Shown: one piece after another, positions 3,903-58,385 of the stretch
Layout: each line of letters begins with the position of its first letter
Position numbering within the stretch: position 1 is the stretch's first letter
Assembly: GCA_949299335.1 (NCBI GenBank)
Contig: CASGAD010000014.1
Span: 66,330 to 130,329, forward strand
Source: an uncultured bacterium
Lineage (GTDB): Bacteria > Bacillota_I > Bacilli_A > RFN20 > CAG-826
Reading direction: 5' to 3'
Length of the DNA stretch: 64,000 nucleotides
The notes under the pieces: generated by a model
The model's database searches: none
What the model was told of the DNA's origin: nothing
The model's input: only the letters and a program-made list of their open reading frames with translations
Program-made: the position numbers and the translations under genes

Positions 3903-3974
3903 CAATGTCAAAAATAAAAAAGTTCGATTAAATCAGTATTATTTAATTTTTTATATATAATATCAAAAAAATAT

Positions 3975-4002
3975 TTGCTTTTTAAAATTAGTACTATATA
4001 AT
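3975..4002 (+). promoter_or_regulatory. Candidate sigma-A promoter of rpmF
   Basis: TTGCTT (3975-3980), 16-nt spacer, TATAAT (3997-4002). SD AGGAGA at 4014-4019. Confidence 0.4.
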
Positions 4003-4027
4003 ATTCACTTGTTAGGAGAATTATATT

Positions 4028-4201
4028 ATGGCAGTACCTTTTAGAAGAACTAGTAAAACATCAAAAAGAATGAGAAGAACTCATTTTAAATTACATGTTA
4101 ATGGTGTATCAATTTGTTCACATTGTGGAGCAATGGTTAAATCACATACAGTTTGCCCAAAATGTGGTTATTATGATGGCAAACAAGTCATTAAAAAGTA
4201 A
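4028..4201 (+). CDS. rpmF: 50S ribosomal protein L32 (not in the ORF track, 57 aa)
   Basis: Hand translation gives [57 protein letters not shown]. The MAVP..R.SK..R..RR start and two CxxC pairs fit L32, and there is a good SD. Confidence 0.9.
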
Positions 4202-4223
4202 TCTAAATTTGAATTCTAAATCA

Positions 4224-4250
4224 AGTCTCTCTAGCCAGAGACTTTTTTAT
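4224..4250 (+). terminator. Rho-independent terminator after rpmF
   Basis: Stem AGTCTCT (4224-4230) pairs with AGAGACT (4237-4243), followed by TTTTTT. Confidence 0.7.
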
Positions 4251-4280
4251 TGCTGATATATAGAATATATTTTCTATTTT

Positions 4281-4289
4281 TGCTAAAAT
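4281..4289 (+). promoter_or_regulatory. Extended -10 (TGcTAAAAT) placed for a leaderless transcript of the oxidoreductase gene
   Basis: TGCTAAAAT ends at 4289 and the A of the ATG is at 4296, 7 nt downstream. No SD lies between them. Confidence 0.4.
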
Positions 4290-4295
4290 ATCACC

Positions 4296-5273
4296 ATGAA
4301 TTTAGGTTTTTTAGGTTGTTCTAAAATCGGAATAAAAATTATTGAGGCACTAAAATCAATTCCTGAAGTGGTTTTATATGGTTGTAGTGCGCAAGATTCT
4401 ATTAGAGCAAAAGAATATAAAGAAAAATATGGTTTTCTTAAAAGCTACGAATCATATGAAGAAATGTTAAACGATCCTAATATTGAATTAGTTTATGTTT
4501 CTACATTAATGAGTACTCACTATAAAGATGTTTTGATGTGTCTAAAGCATAATAAAAGTGTAATAGTAGAAAAAGCTTTTACAATGAATGCCAAAGAAGC
4601 AGATGAGCTATGTTATTATAGTGAAAAACATAATATTTATCTTGGTGAAGCTATTTGGACTAGATATATGCCTAGTAAAGCTATTATTAATAAACTTATT
4701 AAAGATGGCGTTATAGGGGAAGTTTATCATGTTGACGCTAATTTATCATATTCTTTAAAAAATGTTAAAAGATTGACCACTAAAGAGCTTGGTGGAGGTA
4801 TTTTACTTGATGTAGGAGTTTACCCTATTAACTTTTTAACAATGTTTTTTGGCTATGATTTTAAACTTATTAATAGCGTTATGGTCATGAACAAGGAATT
4901 TAATGTTGATGAAAGTGTAATGATAAATGTAGTCTATAAAAACGGATTGACGGCCTCTTTATTTGCTTCAATGAACGGAGTTACTTCTAAAAAAGGAATT
5001 ATTTATGGAAGTAAAGGTTATTTAGAAATTGATGATATAAATAATCCTCATAAGGTTTCTATTTTCGATACATTCAATAAAAGATCACCTGAACTTAGTA
5101 AAGTAATTGAATTTGAAAAGCAGGTGAATGGTTATGAATATGAATTTATAGAAACAATTGAAAATGTTAAAAATCATCAAATTGAGCCAAATTCAATGCT
5201 TCATAGTGAAACATTAAAAATTATGAAAATCATTGATGAAATCAATGAAAAATCGATAAAAGTATATAAGTAG
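4296..5273 (+). CDS. Gfo/Idh/MocA-family NAD(P)-dependent oxidoreductase
   Basis: N-terminal Rossmann pattern LGFLGCSKIG, EKA(F) motif VIVEKAF, typical length of about 325 aa. Confidence 0.8.
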   Translation: MNLGFLGCSKIGIKIIEALKSIPEVVLYGCSAQDSIRAKEYKEKYGFLKSYESYEEMLNDPNIELVYVSTLMSTHYKDVLMCLKHNKSVIVEKAFTMNAKEADELCYYSEKHNIYLGEAIWTRYMPSKAIINKLIKDGVIGEVYHVDANLSYSLKNVKRLTTKELGGGILLDVGVYPINFLTMFFGYDFKLINSVMVMNKEFNVDESVMINVVYKNGLTASLFASMNGVTSKKGIIYGSKGYLEIDDINNPHKVSIFDTFNKRSPELSKVIEFEKQVNGYEYEFIETIENVKNHQIEPNSMLHSETLKIMKIIDEINEKSIKVYK

Positions 5274-5308
5274 TTATTTTATAGTAATTAATTAGTATTA
5301 AATTAGTA
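5260..5308 (+). repeat. Phased TAGTA array 1 (period 11 bp), fills the gap between the oxidoreductase gene and deoC
   Basis: Perfect TAGTA at 5282, 5293 and 5304. Degenerate AAGTA at 5260 and TAGTT at 5271; the latter contains the TAG stop. Confidence 0.7.
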
Positions 5309-5958: not shown

Positions 5959-6047
5959 TTATCCAAAAATAAAAAAACTATTGCTTAGCAATATTAATTT
6001 CTGTAAAATTAATAACGTTCGAATTCGAGAATGGAGGTGAAAAAAAG

Positions 6048-6221
6048 ATGTCTAAGGTAGTAATTAGAGAAGGTGAATCTCTCGATGAAGCATTACGTAG
6101 ATTTAAAAGACAAGTCAACAAGGCTGGTACCATTCAAGAATGCAGAAGAAGAGAATGCTTTTTAAAGAAAAATCTTAAGAGAAAATTAAAAAGCGAAAAC
6201 GCTCGTAAAAAATACAGATAG
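6048..6221 (+). CDS. rpsU: 30S ribosomal protein S21 (not in the ORF track, 57 aa)
   Basis: Hand translation gives [66 protein letters not shown] upstream. Confidence 0.9.
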
Positions 6222-6223
6222 TC

Positions 6224-6252
6224 AAAAATCCACTCGATAGGGTGGATTTTTT
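6224..6252 (+). terminator. Rho-independent terminator after rpsU
   Basis: Stem AAAAATCCAC (6224-6233) pairs with GTGGATTTTT (6242-6251), running into a T tract. Confidence 0.75.
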
Positions 6253-6299
6253 TGTTAAAAACTTATTTTTAACCTTGTTGTACTACTAAGGAGGTAAAA

Positions 6300-13382: not shown

Positions 13383-14660
13383 ATGACTACAAGCAAAAAG
13401 AAAAAGGATATTGTCGAAGAAGAAAACGAAGAACTAGATGATGAATTACTAGATGATGCTTCAGATAATGTCATTATTGAAGATGAGGATGAAGGAATTA
13501 AGAGTTTAGAACAAGTTATTAAAGAATTTGAACAAAAGTATAAAAGTTCAAAAATTATTGATCAAGACGAATTTTTAGATGCAACAAGTTACCTTGATTT
13601 AAACGATGATGATTACGAAAAAGTTTTCGAACGCTTTAAAAAGGCTGGCTTTGAATTAACAGGTGGAGAAAAAGATACTGATTTAGATGATGTTGATATC
13701 CCAGATGATCTTAGTGAAGAAGATTTAGTTTCTGATGAAGAAGATTTTGATGATATTGATTTAGCTGAAAGCGAAGAATCTCAAATTGATGTTAATAACC
13801 TTGAAAACTTCGAAAACACAGATGTTAAAGTTAATGATAGTGTTAAACTTTATCTTAAAGAAATTGGTAGAGTACCTTTATTAAAGCCTCAAGAAGAGCA
13901 AGAACTCGCAAAAAGAATTGTGGCTGGCGATAAGGTTGCTAAAGATAAGCTTATTACTGCTAACTTACGTTTAGTTGTTTCTATTGCAAAACACTATATT
14001 GGTAGAGGTATGCAATTTTTGGATTTAATTGAAGAAGGAAACTTGGGACTAATGAAAGCAGTCGATAAATTCGACTATACTAAAGGTTTTAAATTTTCAA
14101 CATATGCCACTTGGTGGATAAGACAAGCTATTACTAGAGCAATTGCTGACCAAGCAAGAACCATTAGAATCCCAGTCCATATGGTAGAAACAATTAATAA
14201 GATTACAAAAGCTCAAAGACAATTAACTCAAGAATTAGGAAGAGATCCAACTGAAGAAGAGATTTCTGAAAAATTAGCAGATCCAACCTTAACACCAGAT
14301 AGAATTAGAACAATTACCGGCTTAGCTTTAGAACCTGTTTCTTTAGAAAGTCCAATTGGTGAAGAAGATGATTCTCATTTAGGAGACTTTGTTGAAGATA
14401 AAGATAGTGTTTCTCCAACTGATTACACAACTCAATCATTAATTAGAGATGCTCTTTATAACGTTATGAATGATTTGACTGATCGTGAAGAAAGAGTTCT
14501 TAGACTTAGATATGGTCTAGATGATAATAGACCTAGAACATTAGAAGAAGTTGGTAAAGAATTTGGTGTCACTAGAGAAAGAATTCGTCAAATTGAAGCA
14601 AAAGCTATTAGAAAGTTAAGACATCCAAATAGAACAAAAAAATTGGATGATTTTCATTAA
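13383..14660 (+). CDS. rpoD: Primary sigma factor RpoD/SigA
   Basis: Acidic region 1.1, region 2 motifs [11 protein letters not shown] and [13 protein letters not shown], region 4 motif [11 protein letters not shown]. Confidence 0.95.
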
Positions 14661-16107: not shown

Positions 16108-16978
16108 AGTAGTTATAAATATCATTTACAACATTTTGATGAACACTCCCATCAGAAACTAATAATATACGTTTCTCAGATGGGATTTTAATTTGCATAG
16201 CGTCTTTTACATCTTTAACAACGGCATAAAGTATATTTTTAGTAGTTAAGTGGTAGTATTCTAGTAGATATTTGTCATATGATGTAGTATCTGTAATGAA
16301 TATAATGACATCATTATCCTTTAAGTTTTCTTCTAAATTCTTTTTTCTATCGAAGTTTTCATCACTTATTTCATCCTCAATAACAGCATTAGGAAGTAAC
16401 TTACGAAGATAATCTAGGGAGCTATCAAAACTAGAACCAGCAAGTTCAGTTTGATATAAAATATGTGTTTTTGATTTATTGAATTTCTTTTCAGTAATAA
16501 CTGATTTAGCCTTTGCAGCATCATTTACATCATAAAATATAAAACTGAATTTTGATTCATTAGTAAGATAGTTTGCTTCTATTGTATTTGTATTACCAAC
16601 AAAAATAATATTGTATTTTCCTTTAGAATTATTGATAAAATCTAATTTTTTCTTAACATTAGGCGATAGCGTTTCAAAAAATCTAAAATGTTCTTTCTTT
16701 AAAACATTGATAGTTTCATGATCACAGCCATAAGGAGAAGTTAAAACGATTGTATCGTTATTTAAATTCTTTAAAAAATCACTAAAGCCCATTGAAGGAA
16801 TATCGACTACATCAATTCCTAATTGCTTTAATTCTTTTTTAATTGCGTTGGCATTTAATAATCCGCCTAAAAGAATGATTTTCTCATTTGGAAAGTCAAA
16901 ACGTGTTTTTCTAGCTATATTTAGTAAGTTTTCCATTGCTGGAGAATAACCAGCTGGAAGTATTAATGTTGTATCCAT
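16061..16978 (-). CDS. IspH/LytB-like protein that lacks the three [4Fe-4S] cysteine ligands (degenerate paralogue or pseudoenzyme)
   Basis: Collinear with remembered IspH motifs along its whole length: PAGYSPAMENL vs PRGFCAGVDRA, ETLSPNVKK vs DATCPLVTK, EISDENFDRK vs DICYATTNRQ, QTE vs QTT, SDGS vs AGAS. It occupies the position and opposite orientation of B. subtilis ispH (yqfP) next to yqfO. Confidence 0.55.
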   Translation of the reverse strand: MDTTLILPAGYSPAMENLLNIARKTRFDFPNEKIILLGGLLNANAIKKELKQLGIDVVDIPSMGFSDFLKNLNNDTIVLTSPYGCDHETINVLKKEHFRFFETLSPNVKKKLDFINNSKGKYNIIFVGNTNTIEANYLTNESKFSFIFYDVNDAAKAKSVITEKKFNKSKTHILYQTELAGSSFDSSLDYLRKLLPNAVIEDEISDENFDRKKNLEENLKDNDVIIFITDTTSYDKYLLEYYHLTTKNILYAVVKDVKDAMQIKIPSEKRILLVSDGSVHQNVVNDIYNYFTYKSLWETVPDIRK

Positions 16979-20342: not shown

Positions 20343-20415
20343 ACACTTATATCTTATTAACTTCGTTAAAATTATACAATACAATAATAAAATAATAGAA
20401 AACTATCACCAAAGG

Positions 20416-20424
20416 TGGTAAAAT
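20416..20424 (+). promoter_or_regulatory. Extended -10 (TGgTAAAAT) upstream of rpmG
   Basis: TGGTAAAAT at 20416-20424, about 30 nt upstream of SD GGAAGGAG and ATG 20457. Confidence 0.4.
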
Positions 20425-20456
20425 ACTAAAGCATTTAGAGGAAGGAGCGATATTTT

Positions 20457-20606
20457 ATGCGTGATAACATTATTTTAAAATGTACAGTTTGTGGTGAGGA
20501 ACAATACATTACATCAAAGAATAAGAAGAACAATCCTGACAGAATCGAAAAAAATAAATATTGTCCACATTGCCAAAAAGTTACAGTTTTCAAAGAGAAG
20601 AAGTAA
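20457..20606 (+). CDS. rpmG: 50S ribosomal protein L33 (not in the ORF track, 49 aa)
   Basis: Hand translation gives [49 protein letters not shown], with two CxxC pairs and a KNKKN..R motif. Confidence 0.9.
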
Positions 20607-20611
20607 TCTAA

Positions 20612-22271: not shown

Positions 22272-22305
22272 AATAAATTCATATATGTTGAAAAGTTTTC
22301 CACAT

Positions 22306-22343
22306 TACTAATAAACTACTAAATTTCTACTAGTTTTCTACTT
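22306..22343 (-). repeat. Phased TAGTA array 2 (period 11 bp), starting at the plsY stop
   Basis: Plus-strand TACTA at 22306, 22317 and 22328. TACTT at 22339 overlaps the TAG stop of plsY. Confidence 0.7.
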
Positions 22344-28233: not shown

Positions 28234-28271
28234 TAGTAAATAATTAGTAGTTTATAAGTACTAAATTAGTA
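28234..28271 (+). repeat. Phased TAGTA array 3 (period 11 bp) in the divergent gap upstream of yqeG
   Basis: TAGTA at 28234, 28245 and 28267. AAGTA at 28256. Confidence 0.7.
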
Positions 28272-28359
28272 GTATTCATGGATTTTTGTTTAACTAAAAC
28301 CTATTTAAAAACTTGATCTAATTTTGATTGATTTACTTTAAATAACAATACCAAAAATG

Positions 28360-28365
28360 TAAAAT
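28360..28365 (+). promoter_or_regulatory. -10 box TAAAAT placed for a leaderless yqeG transcript
   Basis: TAAAAT ends at 28365 and the ATG is at 28372 (7 nt). No SD. Confidence 0.35.
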
Positions 28366-28371
28366 ATATGT

Positions 28372-28893
28372 ATGTGGAAAAAATTCGTTCCTTTTGCTTT
28401 AGCTGAAAACATTTATGAGATAGAACCTGACTTTTATAAGAAGTATGGTATAGATACTATAATATGTGATTTAGACAATACTTTAGATGCTTATTATGTT
28501 CTTACTCCATCAAATGAAGCGACTAAATTAATTAAGACGCTAAAAGATAATGGCTTTAGAGTAATAATAATCTCGAATAACACAAATAGTAGAGTCGAAA
28601 AATACGCTAAAGATATAAATTGCGAATATGTTTCACTAGCTAGAAAGCCTTTTAGAGCTAAATCAAGAAAGTTTATTAAGCATAATAATATTGATATTAA
28701 AAAGGCAATTTGTATAGGTGATCAAGTGTTTACTGATGTATTATTTGCTAATCGAATGAAAATGAAATGCATATTATGTAATAATTTAGTAGAGAAAGAT
28801 CAATTCTTTACCAAAATAAATAAATTCTTTGATAAACATTTTAGAAAAAGAGTTTTAAAGAAAAAATTAGCGAAAAACTGGAGGGACATGTAA
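28372..28893 (+). CDS. YqeG-family HAD-IIIA phosphatase
   Basis: DLDNTL, ISNN and GDQVFTDV motifs. First gene of the yqeG-rsfS cluster. Confidence 0.85.
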   Translation: MWKKFVPFALAENIYEIEPDFYKKYGIDTIICDLDNTLDAYYVLTPSNEATKLIKTLKDNGFRVIIISNNTNSRVEKYAKDINCEYVSLARKPFRAKSRKFIKHNNIDIKKAICIGDQVFTDVLFANRMKMKCILCNNLVEKDQFFTKINKFFDKHFRKRVLKKKLAKNWRDM

Positions 28894-31421: not shown

Positions 31422-31449
31422 ACTTCGTATAATATCTATTATGTAATTT
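31422..31449. other. dif: dif-like Xer recombination site (chromosome dimer resolution)
   Basis: ACTTCGTATAA-TATCTA-TTATGTAATTT has the 11-6-11 layout. It matches the remembered B. subtilis dif at 23/28 positions. It lies in the convergent strand-switch gap. Confidence 0.65.
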
Positions 31450-31529: not shown

Positions 31530-31567
31530 TACTAATAAACTACTAGTTATTTACTAATTTGATACTA
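31530..31567 (-). repeat. Phased TAGTA array 4 (period 11 bp), four perfect units, starting at the stop of the 183-aa ORF
   Basis: Plus-strand TACTA at 31530, 31541, 31552 and 31563. The 18-mer ATTACTAATAAACTACTA (31528-31545) is identical to 22304-22321. Confidence 0.75.
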
Positions 31568-32116
31568 ACAAGAATATAATTTTGTATAATTATTTTTAAT
31601 TTCATCATATTTAAAGTTTAAATTAATTATATTAGAAATAAAATCTCTATAACAATTTAAGATCTTTAAAACAGTATTTTTATTTAAAAATGCGCACGGT
31701 CTAGCATCTTTAATTTTGCCATTTTCTAACTTAAATAAGTCTTTGTGAACAATCTGAATGTTTTGAATTTGAGCATAATATTCATTATCTAAAGATAAAG
31801 AATGAATTATACCTAAGTTAATACCATCTTCGCCATCAAAATAGCATTCATACTTAGTTTTAATAGGGCAAATAAGGACACTATTTTCGTATTCTCCACT
31901 ACTTTTAATAACCACCACTTTAATTGATTTTGCTTCTTTTTTATCATAGTAGCAATTATAGATTTCACCGATTAAAAAGGCTTTTTTGTCTCTATTAAAC
32001 AAGTAATTAGTTGTATATGATAAGGTGGTATTTGCCCGTTCTAATTGCCTAGTTAAAGCATTATTTTTGTCAGATTTAACAAAATATATGTTTTTTTCTT
32101 TAATTTGACTATCCAT
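31565..32116 (-). CDS. Hypothetical protein, weak PemK/MazF-like pattern
   Basis: Good SD AAGGAGAG. GEIY...KVVVI...VLICPIKTK...AQIQNIQIVHKDLF resembles the toxin pattern GD[IV]Y..RP.VV..v.v.PiT..dQirtvdk.Rl. The similarity is weak. Confidence 0.5.
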   Translation of the reverse strand: MDSQIKEKNIYFVKSDKNNALTRQLERANTTLSYTTNYLFNRDKKAFLIGEIYNCYYDKKEAKSIKVVVIKSSGEYENSVLICPIKTKYECYFDGEDGINLGIIHSLSLDNEYYAQIQNIQIVHKDLFKLENGKIKDARPCAFLNKNTVLKILNCYRDFISNIINLNFKYDEIKNNYTKLYSC

Positions 32117-36087: not shown

Positions 36088-37286
36088 TTTTTATTATCCT
36101 TTAAGTCACTTAATCTCATAAAGGTTGTTTTTTTGGTTTCTCGATTAAGTTTATTTATTAAAAGTTGAGTTTTATTCTCTTCTTCATGTCTAGAATAGTT
36201 ATCAAAAGTCATTTGAACTTTGATATCGTGCTTAGGAACTAGGTTTTTTAAAGTAAATCCAATTAACCTAATAGTTTCATTTTTAAATGAAGATTCAAAT
36301 AACTTTAGTGCTTCGGCATATATCAAATCTTTTGAATTAGTATAGTCTTTAAATGACTTAGAGACAGTATTTGTTTTAAAACCAGTTTCACAACTAGCAT
36401 CTTTATAGGTTATTTGAATTGTTTTGCATAGCATATCTTCTTTTAAGAAGTTATCTATGACATTATTGACTAATCTAATATAAAATTGCTTGATAACAGT
36501 TTTTTCATTTGTATCATAGTCTAAAGTTCTAGTCATTCCGATTGATTTAGCAAAATCAAAAGAAGATTCGACCTCATCGTTAGAATTTCCTTCTAATTGA
36601 TTAATAATATCGTCTTTAAATTTTCCAAAGAAATTGTAAATTTCTTCATTTTCACTTTTTAAGGAATAATAAAGATCACCGATTGTTTTTATGCCAGCTC
36701 TTTCTAGTTTAGGGGCAGTTTTTTTACCTATGCCAAAGTATTTCGCGACACTTAATGGAAATAATATATCTTTAATGTCTTTTTTTCTTATAACTGTAAT
36801 GCCCATTGGCTTTTTATAATCACTACCCATTTTGGCTAAAAATCGAGTTGGAGCTATACCGATCGAACACTTCAATTTGGTTTCTTGGAACAAACCATCT
36901 TGCATTTTCTTAACAAGTTTAAGGAAATCTTCGTGCTTGAATTTATTATATACGTCTGTAAAATCACAAAAACATTCATCAATCGACATTTGTTCAATTT
37001 TTAATGTGTATTTTCTAATGTAATTAATGAATTCTTTAGACATTAACTCGTAATAACGATAATCCCCCTTACATATTATTAAGTCTTTACAAAGCATTTT
37101 TGCTTGAAAAGTAGGCATTCCAGAATGTATACCATATTCTCTAGCTTTATAGGAGCAAGTTGAAATTATACCTCTTCGTCCTTCACCTCCAACGGCAACT
37201 GGTTTTCCAATTAATTGAGGATTTTTAATTTCTTCGCATCTTACAAAGAATTGATTTAAGTCGATATGTAGGATTATCTTTGCCAT
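36084..37286 (-). CDS. dinB: DNA polymerase IV (Y-family)
   Basis: HIDLNQFF, SIDECF and a HhH region GIGKKTAPKL. No SD in front of the ATG. Confidence 0.88.
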   Translation of the reverse strand: MAKIILHIDLNQFFVRCEEIKNPQLIGKPVAVGGEGRRGIISTCSYKAREYGIHSGMPTFQAKMLCKDLIICKGDYRYYELMSKEFINYIRKYTLKIEQMSIDECFCDFTDVYNKFKHEDFLKLVKKMQDGLFQETKLKCSIGIAPTRFLAKMGSDYKKPMGITVIRKKDIKDILFPLSVAKYFGIGKKTAPKLERAGIKTIGDLYYSLKSENEEIYNFFGKFKDDIINQLEGNSNDEVESSFDFAKSIGMTRTLDYDTNEKTVIKQFYIRLVNNVIDNFLKEDMLCKTIQITYKDASCETGFKTNTVSKSFKDYTNSKDLIYAEALKLFESSFKNETIRLIGFTLKNLVPKHDIKVQMTFDNYSRHEEENKTQLLINKLNRETKKTTFMRLSDLKDNKK

Positions 37287-37291
37287 ATTTA

Positions 37292-37329
37292 TACTAAATA
37301 ACTACTAGTTATATACTAATTATTTACTT
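37292..37329 (-). repeat. Phased TAGTA array 5 (period 11 bp), fills the xseB-dinB gap
   Basis: Plus-strand TACTA at 37292, 37303 and 37314. TACTT at 37325 overlaps the xseB TAA stop. Confidence 0.7.
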
Positions 37330-37503
37330 ATTTAATTTTTCTTTGGCTTTTTCAATTATTTCACCTAAATCTTTAATTAATTCTTGAGCTTCATCATATA
37401 ACTTCAAACTTTTCTCAAGATCTAATTCACCACTATCAATTTGACTTACAATTTTTGATAGTTTTTCCATTTTTTCTTCAAATGTTAACTTCTTTTCAGC
37501 CAT
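37324..37503 (-). CDS. xseB: Exodeoxyribonuclease VII small subunit (not in the ORF track, 59 aa)
   Basis: Hand translation gives MAEKKLTFEEKMEKLSKIVSQIDSGELDLEKSLKLYDEAQELIKDLGEIIEKAKEKLNK. Starts 1 nt after the xseA stop. Confidence 0.88.
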   Translation of the reverse strand: MAEKKLTFEEKMEKLSKIVSQIDSGELDLEKSLKLYDEAQELIKDLGEIIEKAKEKLNK

Positions 37504-44693: not shown

Positions 44694-46964
44694 TTAATGA
44701 ATAACACGTCTTACTTCGTAAATGTCTTTCATACCCTTTAAAATGTCAAAAATGTGTTGAAGAACGTTGGCATCACTAACATAAATTTGGCAATAAACAC
44801 TTGTAGTCATGTTTTCTTGATGCATCTTAGCGTTAATTTCAGTACATTTGACTTTGTTAGCGTTAAAAGCGTTTAAAATATCAGCTAATAAGTTATTTCT
44901 ATCTCTTGATTCAATAACAATATCAACTGGATATGATTTTATTCCTAAGTTTGTTTTCCGATGAACATCGATTAATCTACCCTTAACATTTGCAACATTT
45001 GGGCAATTTATTCTATGAACAGTAACTCCATTACCTTTAGTGACATAACCAATAATATTATCTCCTGGAATTGGCGTACAGCAATTTCCAAGAGTGATTT
45101 TAAAGCCAGTTTGATTATCAATAGTTACTGGACAATTGTCATCTTCAAAATTTTCTTTTCTACTAATCTTTAATTCTGAAGTTTCAACTCTTTTAATTTT
45201 TAAGAAATCACAAATTTGAGCTGGAGTTGGATTATGCGCAGCAACAGCCATAAATAAATCATCAACAGTAGATAATTGGTAGTTCTTTAGTACTTTATCA
45301 GTAGATATTAAGGATATCATTTCGTTTTCATCGTACCCTCTATCCTTGAAGAAATCACTTAAAATAGTTTTACCTCTAGCAATTTTTTCATCTTTTACTA
45401 GTCCACTATTTTTCTTTTGTAAGAATTTTTTAATATGCCCTTTTGCACTATTAGTTTTTACAATATTTAACCAGTTTTCATTAGGACCAGGTGCGGTTTT
45501 AGAAGTTTTAATCTCTACAATATCACCAGTTTTTAAAATTGTATTTAAAGGTACTAATGTATTATTAACTATTGCACCAACTGCTGTGTCACCTACTTTA
45601 GTATGAATTTTATAAGCGAAATCTAAAGGTGTTGAACCATTTGGTAAATCTATTACTTTTCCTTTTGGAGTGAAAACATAAACATTTGCCTCAAAGATAT
45701 CTTTACTTAGTGATTCCATATATTCACTAGCCGTTTTATCTCGGGAACTATTATTTATGCTTAAGAAATCTCTAAACCAATGCAACTTTTCTTCGATTTC
45801 ATGTTGTTCTTGCTTAGGACTATAATGTGCCCCTTCTTTATATCTCCAGTGTGCTGCAACACCAGTTTCAGCAATTTCATCCATTTCTTTAGTTCTTATT
45901 TGAACTTCGAAGATATTACCATCCCCAGCGATAATTGACGTATGTAAAGATTGATACATATTTGGTTTAGGCATTGCTATATAATCTTTAAATCTTCCTG
46001 GAATTGGTTTAAAGTGAGCGTGAATTAAACCTAATATTTCATAACAATTTAATTCAGTCTCAGTAATAATTCTTAAAGCCAAAAAATCATAGATTTCATC
46101 AAAAGCATGGCCTTTAATGAACATCTTTTTATAGATTGAATATACAGACTTAATTCTAGATTCAATTTCAAATTTAATATTTTGCTCAATTAAAATATCA
46201 GCAATTTTCTTTTTTAAACTATTTAACGCTTTAGTTCTATTAGCAATTTTTTCATTTAATTGAGAAACTATATGATGAAATTCAACAGGACGTTCGATTT
46301 CAAGAGATAAATCCTCTAATTCACTCTCTAACTTATAAATACCTAATCTATGAGCAATTGGAGCAAAAACTTCTAATGTTTCTTTAGCTAAAGCATGTTG
46401 TCTATCAGGTTTTAAAGCTTTAACTGTTCTCATATTATGAAGTCTATCGGCTAATTTAATGATAATGACACGGACATCTTTAGCCATTCCTAGAAAGATT
46501 TTACGATGATCTTCAGCTGCAAATTCTTCTTCAGTACGTTTTGAAAGCTTCAATCGTTGAATTTTAGTTAACGCATCAACGATTCTAGCACAATCTTCGC
46601 CAAACATTGCCTTAATATCATCAATTGATGTATCAGTATCTTCAACAACATCATGCAATAAAGCAGCGCAAAGAGTAATAGGTCCGCTTTGAAGTGAAGC
46701 ACAAATATAAGCAACTTCAATTAAGTGTTGCAAGTATGGCTCTCCACTTTTTCTAAAGATTCCATCGTGCTTTTTTCTAACAAATTCATAAGCTTTAATA
46801 ATTAAATCACGGTCTTTTTCATCGTGAATATAAGAAAAATATATTTCTTGGACATCTTCAATTGTATGCATTACATAACCACCATTTTGTAAAATAGGTG
46901 ATTCGTCTTTAGCATCAAGTGTTAGGGCTTCAGTTTGTACACCATCTCTTTTAATCTCTTCCAT
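44694..46964 (-). CDS. relA: Bifunctional (p)ppGpp synthetase/hydrolase RelA/SpoT (Rel)
   Basis: HD motif HDVVEDT, synthetase domain, TGS and ACT regions. Start at ATG 46964 with SD GAGGA. Confidence 0.92.
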   Translation of the reverse strand: MEEIKRDGVQTEALTLDAKDESPILQNGGYVMHTIEDVQEIYFSYIHDEKDRDLIIKAYEFVRKKHDGIFRKSGEPYLQHLIEVAYICASLQSGPITLCAALLHDVVEDTDTSIDDIKAMFGEDCARIVDALTKIQRLKLSKRTEEEFAAEDHRKIFLGMAKDVRVIIIKLADRLHNMRTVKALKPDRQHALAKETLEVFAPIAHRLGIYKLESELEDLSLEIERPVEFHHIVSQLNEKIANRTKALNSLKKKIADILIEQNIKFEIESRIKSVYSIYKKMFIKGHAFDEIYDFLALRIITETELNCYEILGLIHAHFKPIPGRFKDYIAMPKPNMYQSLHTSIIAGDGNIFEVQIRTKEMDEIAETGVAAHWRYKEGAHYSPKQEQHEIEEKLHWFRDFLSINNSSRDKTASEYMESLSKDIFEANVYVFTPKGKVIDLPNGSTPLDFAYKIHTKVGDTAVGAIVNNTLVPLNTILKTGDIVEIKTSKTAPGPNENWLNIVKTNSAKGHIKKFLQKKNSGLVKDEKIARGKTILSDFFKDRGYDENEMISLISTDKVLKNYQLSTVDDLFMAVAAHNPTPAQICDFLKIKRVETSELKISRKENFEDDNCPVTIDNQTGFKITLGNCCTPIPGDNIIGYVTKGNGVTVHRINCPNVANVKGRLIDVHRKTNLGIKSYPVDIVIESRDRNNLLADILNAFNANKVKCTEINAKMHQENMTTSVYCQIYVSDANVLQHIFDILKGMKDIYEVRRVIH

Positions 46965-48585: not shown

Positions 48586-51495
48586 TTAGTCATTAATTCC
48601 GCTAAATACAGCTTCTTCTGGGCCTTCTTCACTAGCAACTACTTTATTTTTCTTCTTTGTATCTTTCTTTTTAATAGTCATTTTGCCTTTTAACTTAGCA
48701 AATTCTTTAGTAAAGATTATTTCTAATGGCAATTGTAATGATTTAACAAATATACAAAGTAGTATCATACCTAAAAGGATAAGTCCTAAAGTATATTGAT
48801 CAAATGCTGTTGAGAAGAAGAATGAGATAACTGCGAAAGCTGAAAGTGCTGTGGCAACAAGAATATAACTATAGTTAATATTTGTAACATAATTATATTC
48901 TGTTTCTCTAACATCTAATTCAAACAATCTATGTTTATTTTCTTTATAATAAAGTTTTTCGGCTGAGTAATAAATATCAAGCATAATGTAGCCTAAGATA
49001 CTTAATAATAATAAGCCTAAGCTAATTTCACTAGTGAATGGCCCTCTAATTAATGAGAAGATACCAGCAACACTAGTCAAGGTTGCTCCAACTATAATAA
49101 CTCCACTTAAAGCTTTTGATGGGCCATATCTTAATAAGAAGTAAATTAAGGTTGCACCTAAAGATATTGCGCAAGCTATTAATACGTAAAGATTAATGTT
49201 ATCATCTCTAACGTCATAGACTTTTTCAATAGAAACAATATAGTTTGTGCCTAAATTTGCCTTTTCTTGAATAGCTACACTAATTGCTTCTTCAGCTGTT
49301 AAGGCATTATCATATCCTTCAACATAATAAATACCTTCGTTAGATTCTGTGTCAATTATTGTGTTTAAATCAACATAGAAATAAACTTCTCTATTGGTGA
49401 TAATGGAACTTGAGCTTTCACTAAAGTTGTAATCATAATAGAAATAATCGACTGTAAGCTTATTTTTGAATGCCTTTGTAGTTAAATCTTTATCAGTATA
49501 AATGTTATCAAAGGCATTTTGAACTTTAATTGAGTTAGCTGCAATATCATATTTTGCATTACTATTTTTAATGTTATATGTAATGACTGCTCTTGAATCT
49601 AATTCATTAGAGCCAGCATTATAAATATTGCCATTAATCGATTGGAAAGTAATTAATCCAACAATGCTTGCTAATGTTAAGACACTAGTAACAATACCAA
49701 CAATTTTAAATGTTGACTTAGGAGTTTTCTTTTTAAATGATTCAAGATAAGAAGATTTAACATCTTTACTTAAATCAGCGGTAACTTTTGTATCAATTGC
49801 AAATTGCTTGATATGATTTTGAGCATAAGCTGAGTTATATAAGAACCAACTTACACCTCTAAAGGCAACTATATTAATAACAATTGTGAAAGCACTGCCT
49901 AATAAAGTTATTGCACCAAATGCAGAAATAACTGAACTTGGAATTAAGTAACAAGTTAATCCAATAATTGCACCTATTGCTGAGAAGCCAATAATATTCA
50001 TTGAAGTCTTTTTATTAGCTTCTTGATATGCTTTTTTAAGAGATTTACCTGCGTAAATTTCTGTTTTTGCTTTTGATAACCATATAGATACACCAAATGT
50101 TGCAATCAAACTTACACTAAGTAAGCCTAAAATGGTACCAATATTGAATTCATTACCTAAAACATTAAATACACTTAAACTTGAAATTATACTGCCTAAA
50201 ACAGTAATAATGCCTATAATTCCAGCTGTACCATAGTTAACTAACAAGAATAATGAACAAATTATAACTGCTACTAATGTAGAAATTAAAACTGTAGATT
50301 CTAAATTAACTGTGCCTGCTCTTTTAATATATTCGATGAATGGAGAAACAATATTTGTTCCATCACTTACTTCGGATTGATTGATTAAAGTAATTTCATA
50401 ACGTAAATTTGAAGAATTTAATTCGTTACAGAATAATGTTGCTTTTTTATATGCCAATCTATCATCTTCTTCAATTGTGTTATAGATTTTATAACTAGTT
50501 GTAACATCAATTGGCTTATCACCATCATTAATTGCGCCTAAATTGTAGTATTGGAAGTAAACTTCATCATAAACTTCAGCTTTTTGATCTTCTTCACTTA
50601 AAGTTGAATCATAATTCCAATAGAAACTTGCTGGATTTGATAAATCAAAGAATGTAACAACATAATCTGATAAATTGGAGTCATCAATATTTTTATCATC
50701 ATTTGATAACATATCGCTTAAGTCTAATCCTGATAACCAGTTATTGACAACGAATAAGACTTTACTTTTATCAAGTTTAGTAACTTCTTCGGCTTCAGAA
50801 TCATCGCCTGTAGTATCATCTGTTGTTGTTGATTCATCAGTCGTAACTGTTGAGTCATCAGCTTTTTGAACATTTTCTTTAAATCCAAACTTATTGTAAT
50901 TTGCACTTGAAGTTGAAGAATCTGTGCTTGAAGACATTTCGTCAACAGTAGATTTGAAGTCTTCTGGATTAGTTAATGTTACTACTACATAAGGATAACC
51001 ATTTAAATATTCTACTCTAGCGCTATTTTCAACAAATACTGGCTCAACAGTTGTATCACCAGCTAATACTTGAGTAGCATCTCTACCCATGTTATAAGTT
51101 TCTTCATAGTCCTTAATCATGATAGAGTTACTGAAAGTTAAATAATTAATAACATCATCATAATCGTTTAATGTATCTTTGAAGGTTAAACTCAAAGTAT
51201 CATCCCCGATTGTTTCAAGCTTATATTCACTAATTTCTGCACTATCTAATCTAGATTTAAATTCTTCTGTAACTTCTTCTAAGTAAGTCACATCAGGATC
51301 TAAACTTGTTGCAGGATTTTCAGTTCCGCTTGAGAAGTCATTGTTTGTCTTTCTTTCAGAAATTTTGAAAACAAAATTTCTAGATGTTGAGTAATCACTA
51401 TTTCCGTTTGTTGATAGAATAGTAGGAACTACTCCAACCAACACTGCAGTGAATAATGACGCACACATCGAAATATAACCTATAAATCTCTTCAT
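48586..51495 (-). CDS. secDF: Protein translocase subunit SecDF (fused), with an expanded extracytoplasmic domain
   Basis: Two 6-TM SecD/SecF modules. 969 aa. SD AAGAGG. Confidence 0.85.
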   Translation of the reverse strand: MKRFIGYISMCASLFTAVLVGVVPTILSTNGNSDYSTSRNFVFKISERKTNNDFSSGTENPATSLDPDVTYLEEVTEEFKSRLDSAEISEYKLETIGDDTLSLTFKDTLNDYDDVINYLTFSNSIMIKDYEETYNMGRDATQVLAGDTTVEPVFVENSARVEYLNGYPYVVVTLTNPEDFKSTVDEMSSSTDSSTSSANYNKFGFKENVQKADDSTVTTDESTTTDDTTGDDSEAEEVTKLDKSKVLFVVNNWLSGLDLSDMLSNDDKNIDDSNLSDYVVTFFDLSNPASFYWNYDSTLSEEDQKAEVYDEVYFQYYNLGAINDGDKPIDVTTSYKIYNTIEEDDRLAYKKATLFCNELNSSNLRYEITLINQSEVSDGTNIVSPFIEYIKRAGTVNLESTVLISTLVAVIICSLFLLVNYGTAGIIGIITVLGSIISSLSVFNVLGNEFNIGTILGLLSVSLIATFGVSIWLSKAKTEIYAGKSLKKAYQEANKKTSMNIIGFSAIGAIIGLTCYLIPSSVISAFGAITLLGSAFTIVINIVAFRGVSWFLYNSAYAQNHIKQFAIDTKVTADLSKDVKSSYLESFKKKTPKSTFKIVGIVTSVLTLASIVGLITFQSINGNIYNAGSNELDSRAVITYNIKNSNAKYDIAANSIKVQNAFDNIYTDKDLTTKAFKNKLTVDYFYYDYNFSESSSSIITNREVYFYVDLNTIIDTESNEGIYYVEGYDNALTAEEAISVAIQEKANLGTNYIVSIEKVYDVRDDNINLYVLIACAISLGATLIYFLLRYGPSKALSGVIIVGATLTSVAGIFSLIRGPFTSEISLGLLLLSILGYIMLDIYYSAEKLYYKENKHRLFELDVRETEYNYVTNINYSYILVATALSAFAVISFFFSTAFDQYTLGLILLGMILLCIFVKSLQLPLEIIFTKEFAKLKGKMTIKKKDTKKKNKVVASEEGPEEAVFSGIND

Positions 51496-55796: not shown

Positions 55797-58385
55797 CTAA
55801 ATGTTTTTTAATTTTTCTAAAATTTGGTTAAGTTTACTCTTATAGTTTTCGTATTTTTCTTTTTCAAGATCAATTTTAACTTTTGGAGCTTTTTCAACGA
55901 AGTTTGGATTATTCAATAAACCCTCACTTCTTTTAATTTCAAATTGAACTTGAGCCAAATCCTTCTCTAATCTAGCTTTCATCTCATTTTTATTAATTAA
56001 GTCTTTAACAAACAATGTTAAGTTATCAAGAATAATACTGGTAACACCTTTAATGTTTTCTTTAGTAGTAACTAAAGATTTAGCAAAGCTAAATCTAGCA
56101 ATATAAGGATAAATATCTTCTACATCTAAATTTGTTTTAATATAAAGTTCTAATGGTGCGTTTGGAGCTAATTCATTTTTAACCTTATATTCTCTTAATT
56201 TTTCAATTGCAGCTTTTAATATATCTCCCTTTTTAAGTGAATCTTCAAAGATATATTCATTTTCAAAATCAGGATAAGATTCAAGCATGATAGACTCTTT
56301 ATGATCTGGTAAAGCTAAATAAATCTCTTCTGCAATAAATGGCGAGAATGGATAAATCATCATAATTATTGCTTTTAAAGCTTTAATTAATACAAAATAA
56401 GTTCCTTCTTTATATGCTTTTTCATCTTTTAAAGTAACTTTTGTCATTTCTAGATAAAATGAACAGAAATCATCATAAACAAAATTATATAAATTTGTAC
56501 TAGCAACACCATATTCATATGAATCCATGGCTTTAGTTACATTCTTAATAGTATCTTCTAATCTAGTGAGAATGTATTTATCAATTGTTTCAAGTTTATT
56601 TAAATTTATTTCACCTTGAGAATAGTTTTCAGGCAAATTCATAAGAATATATCGGGCACTGTTCCAAATTTTATTTAAATAATTATTAGCGGATTTAACT
56701 TTTTCTTCGCTATAACGCATATCTAAGCCTGGAGATGCAGTTGTTGCTAAGAAATATCTTAAGCTATCGACACCATAATTATTAATTACATCTATTGGAT
56801 CAATACCATTTCCTAATGATTTTGACATTTTTCTTACTTGAGAATCTCTTACAATTCCATGAATTATGACATTCTTAAATGGAACATTCTTTGTAAAATA
56901 TAGTCCTTGGAAAACCATTCTTGCTACCCAGAAGAAGATAATATCGTATCCAGTGACCATACAATCTAAAGGATAATAACGTTTAAAATCATCTGTATTA
57001 TCTGGCCAACCTAATGTTTCAAAAGGCCATAAAGCGCTTGAGAACCAAGTATCTAAAACATCTTCATCTTGGGTCCGATTTTCCATATCAGTAGGTTTTT
57101 GGGCAGAAACTAGTATTTCATTAGTAGTTTTATGGTAATAAACAGGAATCCTATGACCCCACCATAGTTGTCTTGAGACACACCAGTCATCACATTTTTC
57201 CATCCATTGCTCTAAAACTTTTTCAAATCTTTCTGGGAAAAATTTAATTTTATCTTTTGAAGCTTGTTGATCTAAGACAAGTTGAGCAAGAGGTTTCATT
57301 TTTACAAACCATTGTAATGAAAGAATAGGTTCTACTACAGCATCACTTCTTTCGCTGTGTCCAACTTGGTGTTTAATGTTTTCAATCTTAATCAAATTGC
57401 CTTCTTCTTTAATAGTCTTCACTAATAAATCTCTACAAGCAAATCTATCCATACCAGCGTATTTACCACAATTTTCTTTCATAGTGCCATCAACATTCAT
57501 AATAATTGGATGTGGTAAATTGTATTTTTGACCAATAATCCAGTCATTAGGATCATGAGCTGGGGTACATTTCATTGCGCCAGTACCAAATTGAATATCA
57601 ACATATTCATCTGCAATAACAGGAATTTCCTCATGGTTAGCTGGATTTATAACTTTTTTGCCAACTACATCTTTATATCTTTCATCATTCGGATTAACAA
57701 CAATGCAAGTATCACCAAACATTGTTTCAGGTCTAGTTGTAGCAATTGTTAAAAACTTTGAAGGATTATCTACAAAAGGGTATTTAAAGTAGAAAAATTG
57801 GCCTTCATCTTCTTTATATATAACTTCAATATTACTTAAAGCAGTTTTCATGACTGGATCATAGTTAACAATTTTTTGTCCTCTATAAATAAGTCCTTTA
57901 TTATATAAAGTAACAAAAACTTTGTTAACAGCTTTTGAACAACCAGCATCCAAGGTGAATCTTTCACGAGTATAATCGACCATTATGCCCATTTTCGCCC
58001 ATTGTTCATGAATTTTAGAAGTATATTCTTCTTTCCATTCATAAGCACGTTTCATGAATTCTTCTCTACCTATGATAAATCTTGAAGTTCCTTCACTAGC
58101 AAGTTTAGCATCTACTTTTGCTTGAGTAGCAATTCCAGCATGGTCAACACCTGGTAAAAATAATACATCAAAGCCTTTAGCTTTTTTATATCTACAAGTA
58201 ATATCTTGAATAGTGTTATCGATTGAGTGACCTATATGAAGCTTACCTGTAACGTTTGGTGGAGGAATAACCATAGAAAATTTTTGCTTTGATTTGTCTC
58301 CAGCTGTAAAATAACCAGCTTTCTTCCAAATTTCGTATCTTCCAGCTTCCACTTCTTTAAAATCGTATTTTTTGTCAAGTGCCAT
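55797..58385 (-). CDS. valS: Valine--tRNA ligase
   Basis: HIGH (LHIGH) and KMSKS motifs, C-terminal coiled coil. 862 aa. Confidence 0.95.
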   Translation of the reverse strand: MALDKKYDFKEVEAGRYEIWKKAGYFTAGDKSKQKFSMVIPPPNVTGKLHIGHSIDNTIQDITCRYKKAKGFDVLFLPGVDHAGIATQAKVDAKLASEGTSRFIIGREEFMKRAYEWKEEYTSKIHEQWAKMGIMVDYTRERFTLDAGCSKAVNKVFVTLYNKGLIYRGQKIVNYDPVMKTALSNIEVIYKEDEGQFFYFKYPFVDNPSKFLTIATTRPETMFGDTCIVVNPNDERYKDVVGKKVINPANHEEIPVIADEYVDIQFGTGAMKCTPAHDPNDWIIGQKYNLPHPIIMNVDGTMKENCGKYAGMDRFACRDLLVKTIKEEGNLIKIENIKHQVGHSERSDAVVEPILSLQWFVKMKPLAQLVLDQQASKDKIKFFPERFEKVLEQWMEKCDDWCVSRQLWWGHRIPVYYHKTTNEILVSAQKPTDMENRTQDEDVLDTWFSSALWPFETLGWPDNTDDFKRYYPLDCMVTGYDIIFFWVARMVFQGLYFTKNVPFKNVIIHGIVRDSQVRKMSKSLGNGIDPIDVINNYGVDSLRYFLATTASPGLDMRYSEEKVKSANNYLNKIWNSARYILMNLPENYSQGEINLNKLETIDKYILTRLEDTIKNVTKAMDSYEYGVASTNLYNFVYDDFCSFYLEMTKVTLKDEKAYKEGTYFVLIKALKAIIMMIYPFSPFIAEEIYLALPDHKESIMLESYPDFENEYIFEDSLKKGDILKAAIEKLREYKVKNELAPNAPLELYIKTNLDVEDIYPYIARFSFAKSLVTTKENIKGVTSIILDNLTLFVKDLINKNEMKARLEKDLAQVQFEIKRSEGLLNNPNFVEKAPKVKIDLEKEKYENYKSKLNQILEKLKNI

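Follow-up and report, generated by a model that had tools for sequence, protein, structure and literature searches.

In Firmicutes, the LexA box of the "Cheo" type (CGAAC-N4-GTTCG) is a palindrome, which occurs in a single copy and is specific to the SOS regulon. Like the Cheo box upstream of Firmicutes dinB genes, the element analysed here, a short array of TAGTA units (A5), is located directly upstream of a gene for a Y-family polymerase, in a 64,000-nt stretch of DNA from an uncultured bacterium (the whole analysed stretch is called "the window" below). Unlike the Cheo box, the TAGTA arrays are direct repeats, occur at many loci and have mostly housekeeping neighbours. A literature search for TAGTA direct repeats gave no description of such an element, and the element family itself appears to be undescribed.

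DnaA sites placed 2–3 bp apart (a period of 11–12 bp) are bound cooperatively from an anchoring consensus box, and bound DnaA can block RNA polymerase; the DnaA regulon of E. coli includes repair genes (PMC6070618, PMC11317965). The TAGTA arrays resemble these low-affinity arrays in being strictly head-to-tail and in having a period of 11 only. They differ in that their units have an invariant core of their own, AGT, which does not align with the DnaA box, and in that most of them have no anchor box and are placed at gene ends near the terminus. In the DnaA-trio (BUS) of oriC, at least three contiguous 3-nt repeats lie 10–13 bp from a DnaA box and are followed by an AT-rich DUE (PMC8287927, PMC6669920). 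As in the DnaA-trio, the TAG of the arrays (3'-GAT-5') is on the same side and strand of the box, from which the nearest class is separated by about 10 nt; unlike the trio, there are two contiguous TAG per unit, recurring every 11 nt beside dif and followed by a coding region.

Among OmpR/PhoB-type sites, those of ArcA are direct repeats in a variable number of 2–5, spaced by 11 bp centre-to-centre and bound cooperatively on one helix face, and the sites of Apl (RDF/Xis) and the ParR iterons are helical-turn direct repeats as well (PMC3798270 for ArcA). The TAGTA arrays are likewise 11-bp direct repeats of 2–5 exact units. Unlike the OmpR/PhoB, RDF/Xis/Apl and ParR sites, which cover promoters or att sites and centromeres, they have an unrelated core, follow stop codons and are biased towards the sense strand.

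Rok of B. subtilis, a winged-helix nucleoid protein, prefers the 5-bp core TACTA/AACTA with a central G:C pair between TpA steps (PMC6212790); it oligomerises and recruits DnaA to sites without a box (PMC6212790, PMC4447404). The same core is represented by TAGTA and TAGTT (= TACTA/AACTA), the two commonest units here, with AAGTA next. Rok is a xenogeneic silencer for which no phased arrays are described and whose motif is depleted from the core genome, whereas junctions of core genes are where the TAGTA arrays are conserved; tblastn detected no Rok homologue in the window and 79 loci, all of them terminus-proximal. On this comparison, membership of the arrays in the DnaA, ArcA/PhoB-type, RDF, ParR or Rok systems is not established.

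The array in the xseB-dinB gap

The window has a GC content of 25–33% over its range and intact ORFs in translation table 11; its Rfam (gathering threshold) and tRNA scans gave no match. The genomes closest to it are MAGs of uncultured Bacilli, among them Candidatus Onthovivens and CAG-826-like bins, and an identical DinB protein was found on ENA/Logan metagenome contigs. The gene order on the minus strand is tig-lon-engB-valS-rplU-prp-rpmA-obg-ruvA-ruvB-secDF-like-recJ-relA-hisS-aspS-tkt-(106 aa)-nusB-xseA-xseB-dinB-xerD-deoB-...-MazF-like ORF, in which nusB, xseA, xseB and dinB (Pol IV) were confirmed with Pfam/NCBIfam. The 969-aa ORF between ruvB and recJ (48586-51495, minus strand) has no Pfam match and a weak match to mycoplasma-type SecDF of NCBIfam (NF046001, 115 bits at a cutoff of 500). 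Three large gaps (3903-4295, 5959-6299 and 20385-20611) each contain one short, unlisted ribosomal-protein gene (L32-, S21- and L33-like by eye, from the translations) and so are not empty regulatory stretches.

The xseB-dinB gap of 37 nt is occupied by one array, which on the minus strand reads ...AAT AAG TAA ATAAT TAGTA TATAAC TAGTA GTTATT TAGTA TAAAT ATG.

37292..37329, minus strand: array A5, four units with an 11-nt period (AAGTA and three TAGTA); orthologous arrays exist
37329-37325, minus strand: A5 unit AAGTA
37318-37314, 37307-37303 and 37296-37292, minus strand: A5 units TAGTA
37324..37326, minus strand: TAA stop codon of xseB, embedded in the first, degenerate unit of A5
37284..37286, minus strand: ATG of dinB (Pol IV), 5 nt (TAAAT) after the last unit, no SD

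The AAGTA unit includes the last codon of xseB and the TA of its stop codon, and the three TAG triplets are distributed over all three reading frames. Tandem Repeats Finder delimits the repeat at 37290-37332 (period 11, 3.9 copies). RNA folding of the gap is not significant (z -1.07). The start codon of dinB is backed by the conserved N-terminus of its orthologues, M-x-K-I-I-L-H-x-D. The first-pass annotation had given the position of the array, its overlap with the xseB stop and its 5-nt distance from the ATG correctly. It was also right that dinB has no SD (no SD-core match of at least 4 nt at -20..-4) and no Cheo box (no GAAC-N4-GTTC with up to one mismatch near the gene), and that units 1 and 3 create the geometry TTAGTA (37319-37314), 17-nt spacer, TAGTAT (37296-37291).

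Arrays in the window and in related genomes

A5 is accompanied in the window by further arrays:

5260..5308, plus strand: array A1 (AAGTA, TAGTT, three TAGTA), adjoining the SD of deoC
22306..22343, minus strand: array A2 (AAGTA with the plsY stop, then three TAGTA)
28234..28274, plus strand: array A3 (TAGTA, TAGTA, AAGTA, TAGTA), in the gap between parC or a small ORF and yqeG
31530..31567, minus strand: array A4 (four TAGTA), in a convergent gap about 80 nt from dif
16229..16266, plus strand: degenerate four-unit array (AAGTA, TAGTA, TGGTA, TAGTA)

In A1 the TAG stop of a GFO/IDH oxidoreductase gene is inside the TAGTT unit, and the MazF-like ORF 31565-32116 has the first TAG of A4 as its stop codon. 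The A2-type array is kept after plsY in metagenome loci. The degenerate array at 16229-16266 begins 122 nt beyond the dnaG-sigA-trmK-NIF3 cluster, counted from the stop codon of its last gene, and sits within the convergent ispH-like gene, on its antisense strand; two other degenerate arrays of 3–4 units, at 45266-45303 and 57111-57137 (both plus strand), are similarly antisense inside relA and valS. The window has 5 exact copies of the pattern TAGTA-N6-TAGTA-N6-TAGTA (0.00 expected from 100 shuffles), and three-unit arrays with up to two mismatches occur 18 times against 0.54. TAGTA pairs at a spacing of 11 number 13, compared with 0–2 at most spacings up to 40 nt; the exceptions are the harmonics at 22 and 33 and the 3-nt TAGTAGTA overlap.

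For comparison, we used 80 loci around dinB homologues, one genome per species, which together with the window comprise 1.48 Mb; genes in these loci come from simple ORF calls. In this set, 254 TAGTA pairs have a period of 11, while periods of 9, 10, 12, 13, 14 and 15 are represented by 6, 2, 3, 4, 11 and 7 pairs, respectively. As many as 231 of the 254 period-11 pairs (91%) are intergenic, although intergenic DNA makes up 6% of the total. Inverted arrangements are not preferred anywhere in the 1.48 Mb, the units being strictly head-to-tail. The unit consensus is T-TAGTA-(G/T/A)-W-T-W-W with spacers free of G and C, there are 2–5 units per array, and degenerate units in register are mostly TAGTT (36) and AAGTA (30), together with TGGTA, which gives a core of WAGTW.

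In orthologues with a DinB identity of 55–85% the TAGTA columns are invariant and the spacers are scrambled; even between the window and its 85%-identity relative the spacers are randomised while the TAGTA columns are unchanged. In the A5 orthologues, unit 2 is conserved equally with units 1 and 3. These data show that the array is far from chance and is a real, selected cis-element, and that members of the TAGTA-array family stand at numerous gene boundaries throughout a clade of uncultured gut Bacilli.

Two viral contigs from IMG/VR, L182 (7699-7747, minus strand) and L184 (9787-9824, plus strand), with a GC content of 0.38–0.39, also have TAGTA arrays filling gaps between co-directional genes. 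In a scan of viral contigs with the four-unit pattern these two alone resembled the element, the matches being mostly perfect 11-mer satellites and phage iterons. The two contigs suggest that the TAGTA signal is also used by phages that infect related hosts.

Gene junctions

The arrays are repeatedly found at the following junctions of the comparison set:

xseB-dinB: arrays in 18–23 loci
xseB-dxs: arrays in 17–19 loci
xseB-recN: arrays in 3 loci
parC or small membrane ORF-yqeG: arrays in about 25 loci
3' end of the MazF/PemK-like gene, in the convergent gap holding dif: arrays in about 40 loci
aspS-tkt: arrays in 18–22 loci, antisense to both neighbours and abutting the SD of tkt

To these the window adds the oxidoreductase-deoC junction and the position after plsY. 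Position statistics were obtained for 160 arrays with at least two exact units. A same-strand gene precedes 123 of them, the array starting at a median of 11 nt past the stop codon, which is often within the first unit. Downstream, the distance to a start codon on the same strand varies far more (quartiles 7, 17.5 and 61 nt), and 71 of the 160 arrays (44%) have no same-strand downstream gene at all. Co-directional gaps that hold an array have a median length of 54 nt (39 of 73 do not exceed 60 nt) and, being filled by it, leave no room for a hairpin terminator. Convergent gaps hold 49 arrays, with median distances of 9 nt from the preceding stop and 207 nt from the gene on the opposite side. 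The array is thus attached to the upstream gene, as indicated by the short distance from the stop, by the constant association with xseB and by the convergent-gap arrays, which have no gene to regulate.

An array is present upstream of dinB in 22 of the 33 species with a DinB identity of at least 52%, and in none of the 42 more distant species. Since it is absent from distant dinB genes and follows xseB before dinB, dxs or recN alike, its conserved partner is the end of xseB rather than dinB. A control specific to dinB is not supported: the identical array type follows xseB before dxs (17 loci) and recN (3) and is found at housekeeping junctions. dinB is not specially controlled by the TAGTA repeat.

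The sense-strand bias extends over about 10 independent junction types against one. This sole exception is the aspS-tkt class (L034, L040, L048, L076 and 14–18 other loci; for example, L040 3514-3540), where an AT-only palindrome, ATAAAC-N3-GTTTAT, lies ahead of the antisense array. Of the 142 arrays whose locus has a mapped dif, 126 point, like the genes, toward dif; the exceptions are the aspS-tkt class and plsY.

Replication terminus and DnaA-box-like motif

Near 31.4 kb of the window both the GC skew and the direction of the genes switch, and a candidate Xer site is located there:

31422..31449, plus strand: dif-like Xer site ACTTCGTATAA TATCTA TTATGTAATTT (ACTTCGTATAATATCTATTATGTAATTT), at the orientation/GC-skew switch

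The dif-like consensus ACTTCG[TC]ATAAT-N5-TTATGTWAA occurs once per locus in 59 of 79 loci (for example, L013 ~14234-14259). Because the dif-like site coincides with the convergence of orientation and skew, we conclude that the window spans the replication terminus. The dinB-xerD pair is about 6 kb from dif throughout the clade; A5 is about 6 kb from the terminus. All sampled DNA is within ~30 kb of dif, and a terminus-specific role of the arrays is therefore possible. A KOPS-like polarity was rejected: only 57% of single TAGTA are on the leading strand (rank 208 of 694 pentamers).

The MazF-like ORF 31565-32116 (minus strand) belongs to a lineage-specific family of 160–200 aa proteins, encoded in ~40 loci immediately upstream of the array, the box and dif. 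These are divergent PemK/MazF-like proteins with an N-terminal extension (Pfam match on the member from L049; motif NQIRTIDKLR), and the catalytic Arg appears to be lost in the window copy. The family is inherited vertically and syntenically, unlike a mobile toxin–antitoxin module. A word-index search with this ORF, which lies beside A4, gave two homologues only. It was considered as the array binder and rejected, its relatives being PemK/MazF-like and not of a DNA-binding fold.

The motif TGTGG[AG][AT]AA, the reverse complement of TTWTCCACA, has 78 occurrences in the window and the loci. For 38 of these 78 boxes of the TGTGGAWAA type there is a TAGTA pair within 80 nt upstream on the same strand, compared with 0 in the opposite orientation. 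The last exact unit is 12–15, 22–26, 35–36 or 48 nt from the box, which equals 0–4 modulo 11 with a mode of 3. A metagenome scan for the composite of array and box gave 111 matches, 71 of them in registers 2–4; about 70 are at the MazF-like-rsfS-yqeK site and 4 after plsY. Phase-locked boxes of the form TGTGGAWAA(C/G)T are seen, for example, in L013 at 14138 (plus strand) and 14286 (minus strand) and in metagenome loci L204-L314. In some species a second, inverted copy of the motif is located beyond dif, so that two copies flank it.

Frequently the motif pairs, as 5' arm, with an inverted TTWTCCACA in a hairpin, or an intrinsic terminator adjoins it. A neighbouring box is absent at A5, where no TGTGGAWAA occurs, and is present at A2, the only array of the window with a box, and at 38 other arrays:

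22296..22304, minus strand: DnaA-box-like TGTGGAAAA, directly after A2, with an intrinsic terminator hairpin next

In B. subtilis, the region upstream of yqeG/sda is a top DnaA-binding cluster (PMC4447404); here, arrays are located upstream of yqeG in 25 loci. At the start of yqeG in the window (28357-28374, plus strand) there is an extended -10 element, TGtAAAAT, 6 nt before the ATG and no SD, which suggests that its mRNA is leaderless. Its first codons, ATG TGG AAA AAA, also spell the DnaA-box-like TGTGGAAAA.

Possible function of the arrays

We suggest that the arrays are head-to-tail, helically phased sites for a putative oligomerising DNA-binding factor and that they act as a boundary, or gate, on read-through into dinB-xerD-deoB; this proposal, built on sequence comparison, is tentative, plausible but short of probable. 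With units (core WAGTW, W-rich spacer) placed one helical turn (11 bp) apart, an oligomerising factor specific to double-stranded DNA would bind cooperatively along one face of the helix, and the bound array would form a nucleoprotein block at gene 3' ends and in intercistronic gaps. At A5 this block would attenuate or insulate, that is gate, transcription from hisS...nusB-xseA-xseB into dinB-xerD-deoB, and the output of dinB would depend on the occupancy of A5.

A helical period kept to the base, units that all run head-to-tail, a 5-bp core that tolerates A<->T swaps, the phase-lock with the DnaA-box-like motif and the antisense class favour binding to duplex DNA over an RNA element or a promoter. 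Precedents for such binding are DnaA on closely spaced sites, ArcA/PhoB-type regulators, RDFs and ParR, and also Rok in its core specificity and its recruitment of DnaA. The A<->T swaps at the outer unit positions are expected of shape or minor-groove readout of a duplex and are unlikely for base recognition in RNA, while the conserved class of 22 aspS-tkt arrays, antisense to both neighbours, cannot act in a sense mRNA. That the output is a boundary or gate on elongating RNA polymerase is indicated by three features: the arrays are attached to gene ends, they occur in convergent gaps with no gene to regulate, and they leave hairpins no room. What the sequences show is the anatomy of the arrays, their non-random occurrence and conservation, their attachment to the end of the upstream gene and their helical phasing with the DnaA-box-like motif; the protein ligand on duplex DNA, its roadblock or boundary effect and the link through DnaA to replication status are what we infer. 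Against a boundary role, many composites have an ordinary intrinsic terminator next to them, which would make a roadblock there redundant. No regulator gene, response regulators included, is found among the window genes, and the sampled DNA is all within about 30 kb of dif.

The sense-strand bias, the post-stop position and the TAG in three frames would suit an RNA-level element too. In that case, UAGUA repeats in the nascent or mature transcript would be bound by an oligomeric RNA-binding factor (rut-like loading of a ring helicase or terminator, processing or a translational operator), leading to termination, cleavage or silencing of the transcript past the upstream cistron. Ribosomes would be kept off the site by a TAG in every reading frame of a three-unit array. 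We consider such an element unlikely; it is, however, a serious rival to a duplex-bound boundary. It agrees with 123 of 160 arrays being sense and just past a stop codon, and arrays upstream of intrinsic terminators are inside 3' UTRs. The intragenic antisense arrays (16229, 45266 and 57111) could stop antisense RNAs, and the spacing resembles the 11–13 nt per subunit of Rho primary sites. However, the arrays keep their spacing without a single base of variation, the variants that they tolerate are U<->A transversions, and the array is phase-locked to a DnaA-box-like motif, which is a duplex motif. Moreover, the units are C-poor, unlike rut sites, the gap RNA has no structure signal (z -1.07), and there is no Rfam match.

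If the arrays are factor-dependent boundaries, they would represent an unrecognised punctuation of gene expression in widespread uncultured gut Bacilli (Ca. Onthovivens and CAG-826 relatives) and apparently in some phages. As boundary elements, they would improve operon prediction in these MAGs, and they point to a putative abundant DNA-binding factor with Rok-like specificity. The coupling of arrays to DnaA-box-like motifs beside dif raises the testable possibility that replication status, terminus organisation and the expression of a mutagenic polymerase are linked. In its fullest form, which we regard as speculative and rather improbable, the proposal is that the TAGTA arrays are a lineage-specific transcription-boundary system, in which a Rok-like or other oligomerising factor together with DnaA punctuates operons, shields dif from transcription and ties read-through into dinB-xerD-deoB to replication status. 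If such a DnaA-coupled boundary is true, a clade with reduced genomes would have LexA-independent, DnaA-coupled control of a translesion polymerase.

It is quite improbable that DnaA itself binds the units, either as secondary clusters of low-affinity sites extending from an anchor box or as a BUS-like box-plus-trio, in which case DnaA-ATP and replication status would act on dinB and the other junctions. The 11-bp head-to-tail period would correspond to 9-mer DnaA sites 2 bp apart, and a consensus-type box, where present, has a fixed end of the array and a fixed orientation and is loosely in helical phase with the units. The DnaA-trio consensus is TAG, the orientation from box to TAGTAG is as in BUS, and B. 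subtilis has DnaA clusters upstream of yqeG and in a convergent gap, which is matched by the arrays upstream of yqeG. However, the units are not related to TTATCCACA: in the anchor-box register they read TA[G/T/A]WTWWTT with the conserved core AGT, unlike TGTGGAWAA, and the sole 7/9 alignment uses unconserved spacer bases. Alignment of the units as DnaA boxes thus gave no convincing register. The 11-nt period also breaks the 3-nt register of a trio, A5 and most arrays have no box, and the composites are at the terminus beside dif, not at oriC.

Promoter and SOS operator

Most simply, dinB is co-transcribed from upstream and initiated without an SD, since lack of an SD is common here (25 of 58 genes) and the RNA of the gap shows no notable structure. 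The first-pass annotation had instead read TTAGTA-17 nt-TAGTAT as a promoter that makes dinB nearly leaderless, which would be a sigma-A promoter; we regard this as very unlikely. Units 1 and 3 do leave a 17-nt spacer, and in four loci (L012, L014, L021 and L024) the last unit is 6 nt before the dinB ATG. Leaderless-type promoters also exist in the clade (TGtAAAAT-6 nt-ATG at yqeG and TATAAT-8 nt-ATG at distant dinB genes), but they look unlike the array.

SigA of the window (13383-14660) has canonical regions 2.4 and 4.2, and an altered sigma-A specificity was ruled out on its sequence. Compared with TTGACA/TATAAT, the hexamers match at 3/6 and 4/6 positions (7/12), and the pair was not returned by a promoter scan with a threshold of 9/12; the consensus promoter/terminator scan is uninformative in DNA of 28% GC (73 matches against 96 expected). 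Transcription normally starts 6–9 nt downstream of the -10 element, whereas the -10-like hexamer of the window ends 4 nt before the ATG, too near for a start at its A, and in L005, L009, L052, L023, L007 and L017 it ends 4 to 0 nt from the ATG. The distance from the last unit to the ATG is not conserved in orthologues (0 to >60 nt), unit 2 is conserved as well as units 1 and 3, and 71 of 160 arrays (44%) are without a same-strand downstream gene. In addition, A1 abuts an SD, so its last unit cannot be a -10 element.

The notion that the repeat controls dinB in place of an SOS operator survives in part: the array is a conserved cis-element placed where it could control dinB, but it is specific neither to dinB nor to damage. 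A dinB-specific, SOS-type operator for a divergent LexA-like repressor is hardly credible, although an array is upstream of dinB in 22 species, a variant xseB-recN junction exists and other phyla have some LexA boxes that include TTAGTA/TACTAA or consist of direct repeats, because the arrays are built solely of direct repeats without any preference for palindromes, are found beside housekeeping genes and in convergent gaps with no gene to regulate, are missing upstream of ruvAB, recJ and recO in the window, and track xseB, not dinB. Most probably, the array is neither a promoter nor a dinB-specific substitute for the SOS operator. GAAC-N4-GTTC with up to one mismatch occurs 7 times in the window against 14 expected and not upstream of dinB, ruvAB, recO or recJ; tblastn with B. 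subtilis DnaA, LexA and RecA, as with Rok, found none of them in the window and 79 loci, terminus-proximal DNA only. The genomes of the clade may lack a classical SOS circuit.

In 31 more distant species (for example, L034-L062; L037 9955-9999), the region ~40 nt upstream of dinB has no TAGTA array and carries the motif G[GT]TAACATAA, which is the exact XerD-binding arm of the local dif, placed upstream of dinB-xerD. It overlaps a TTAACA-18-TATAAT promoter, the TATAAT of which is about 8 nt before the dinB ATG. This motif could reflect Xer autoregulation or be an XDS-like half-site, combined with a start of the leaderless type.
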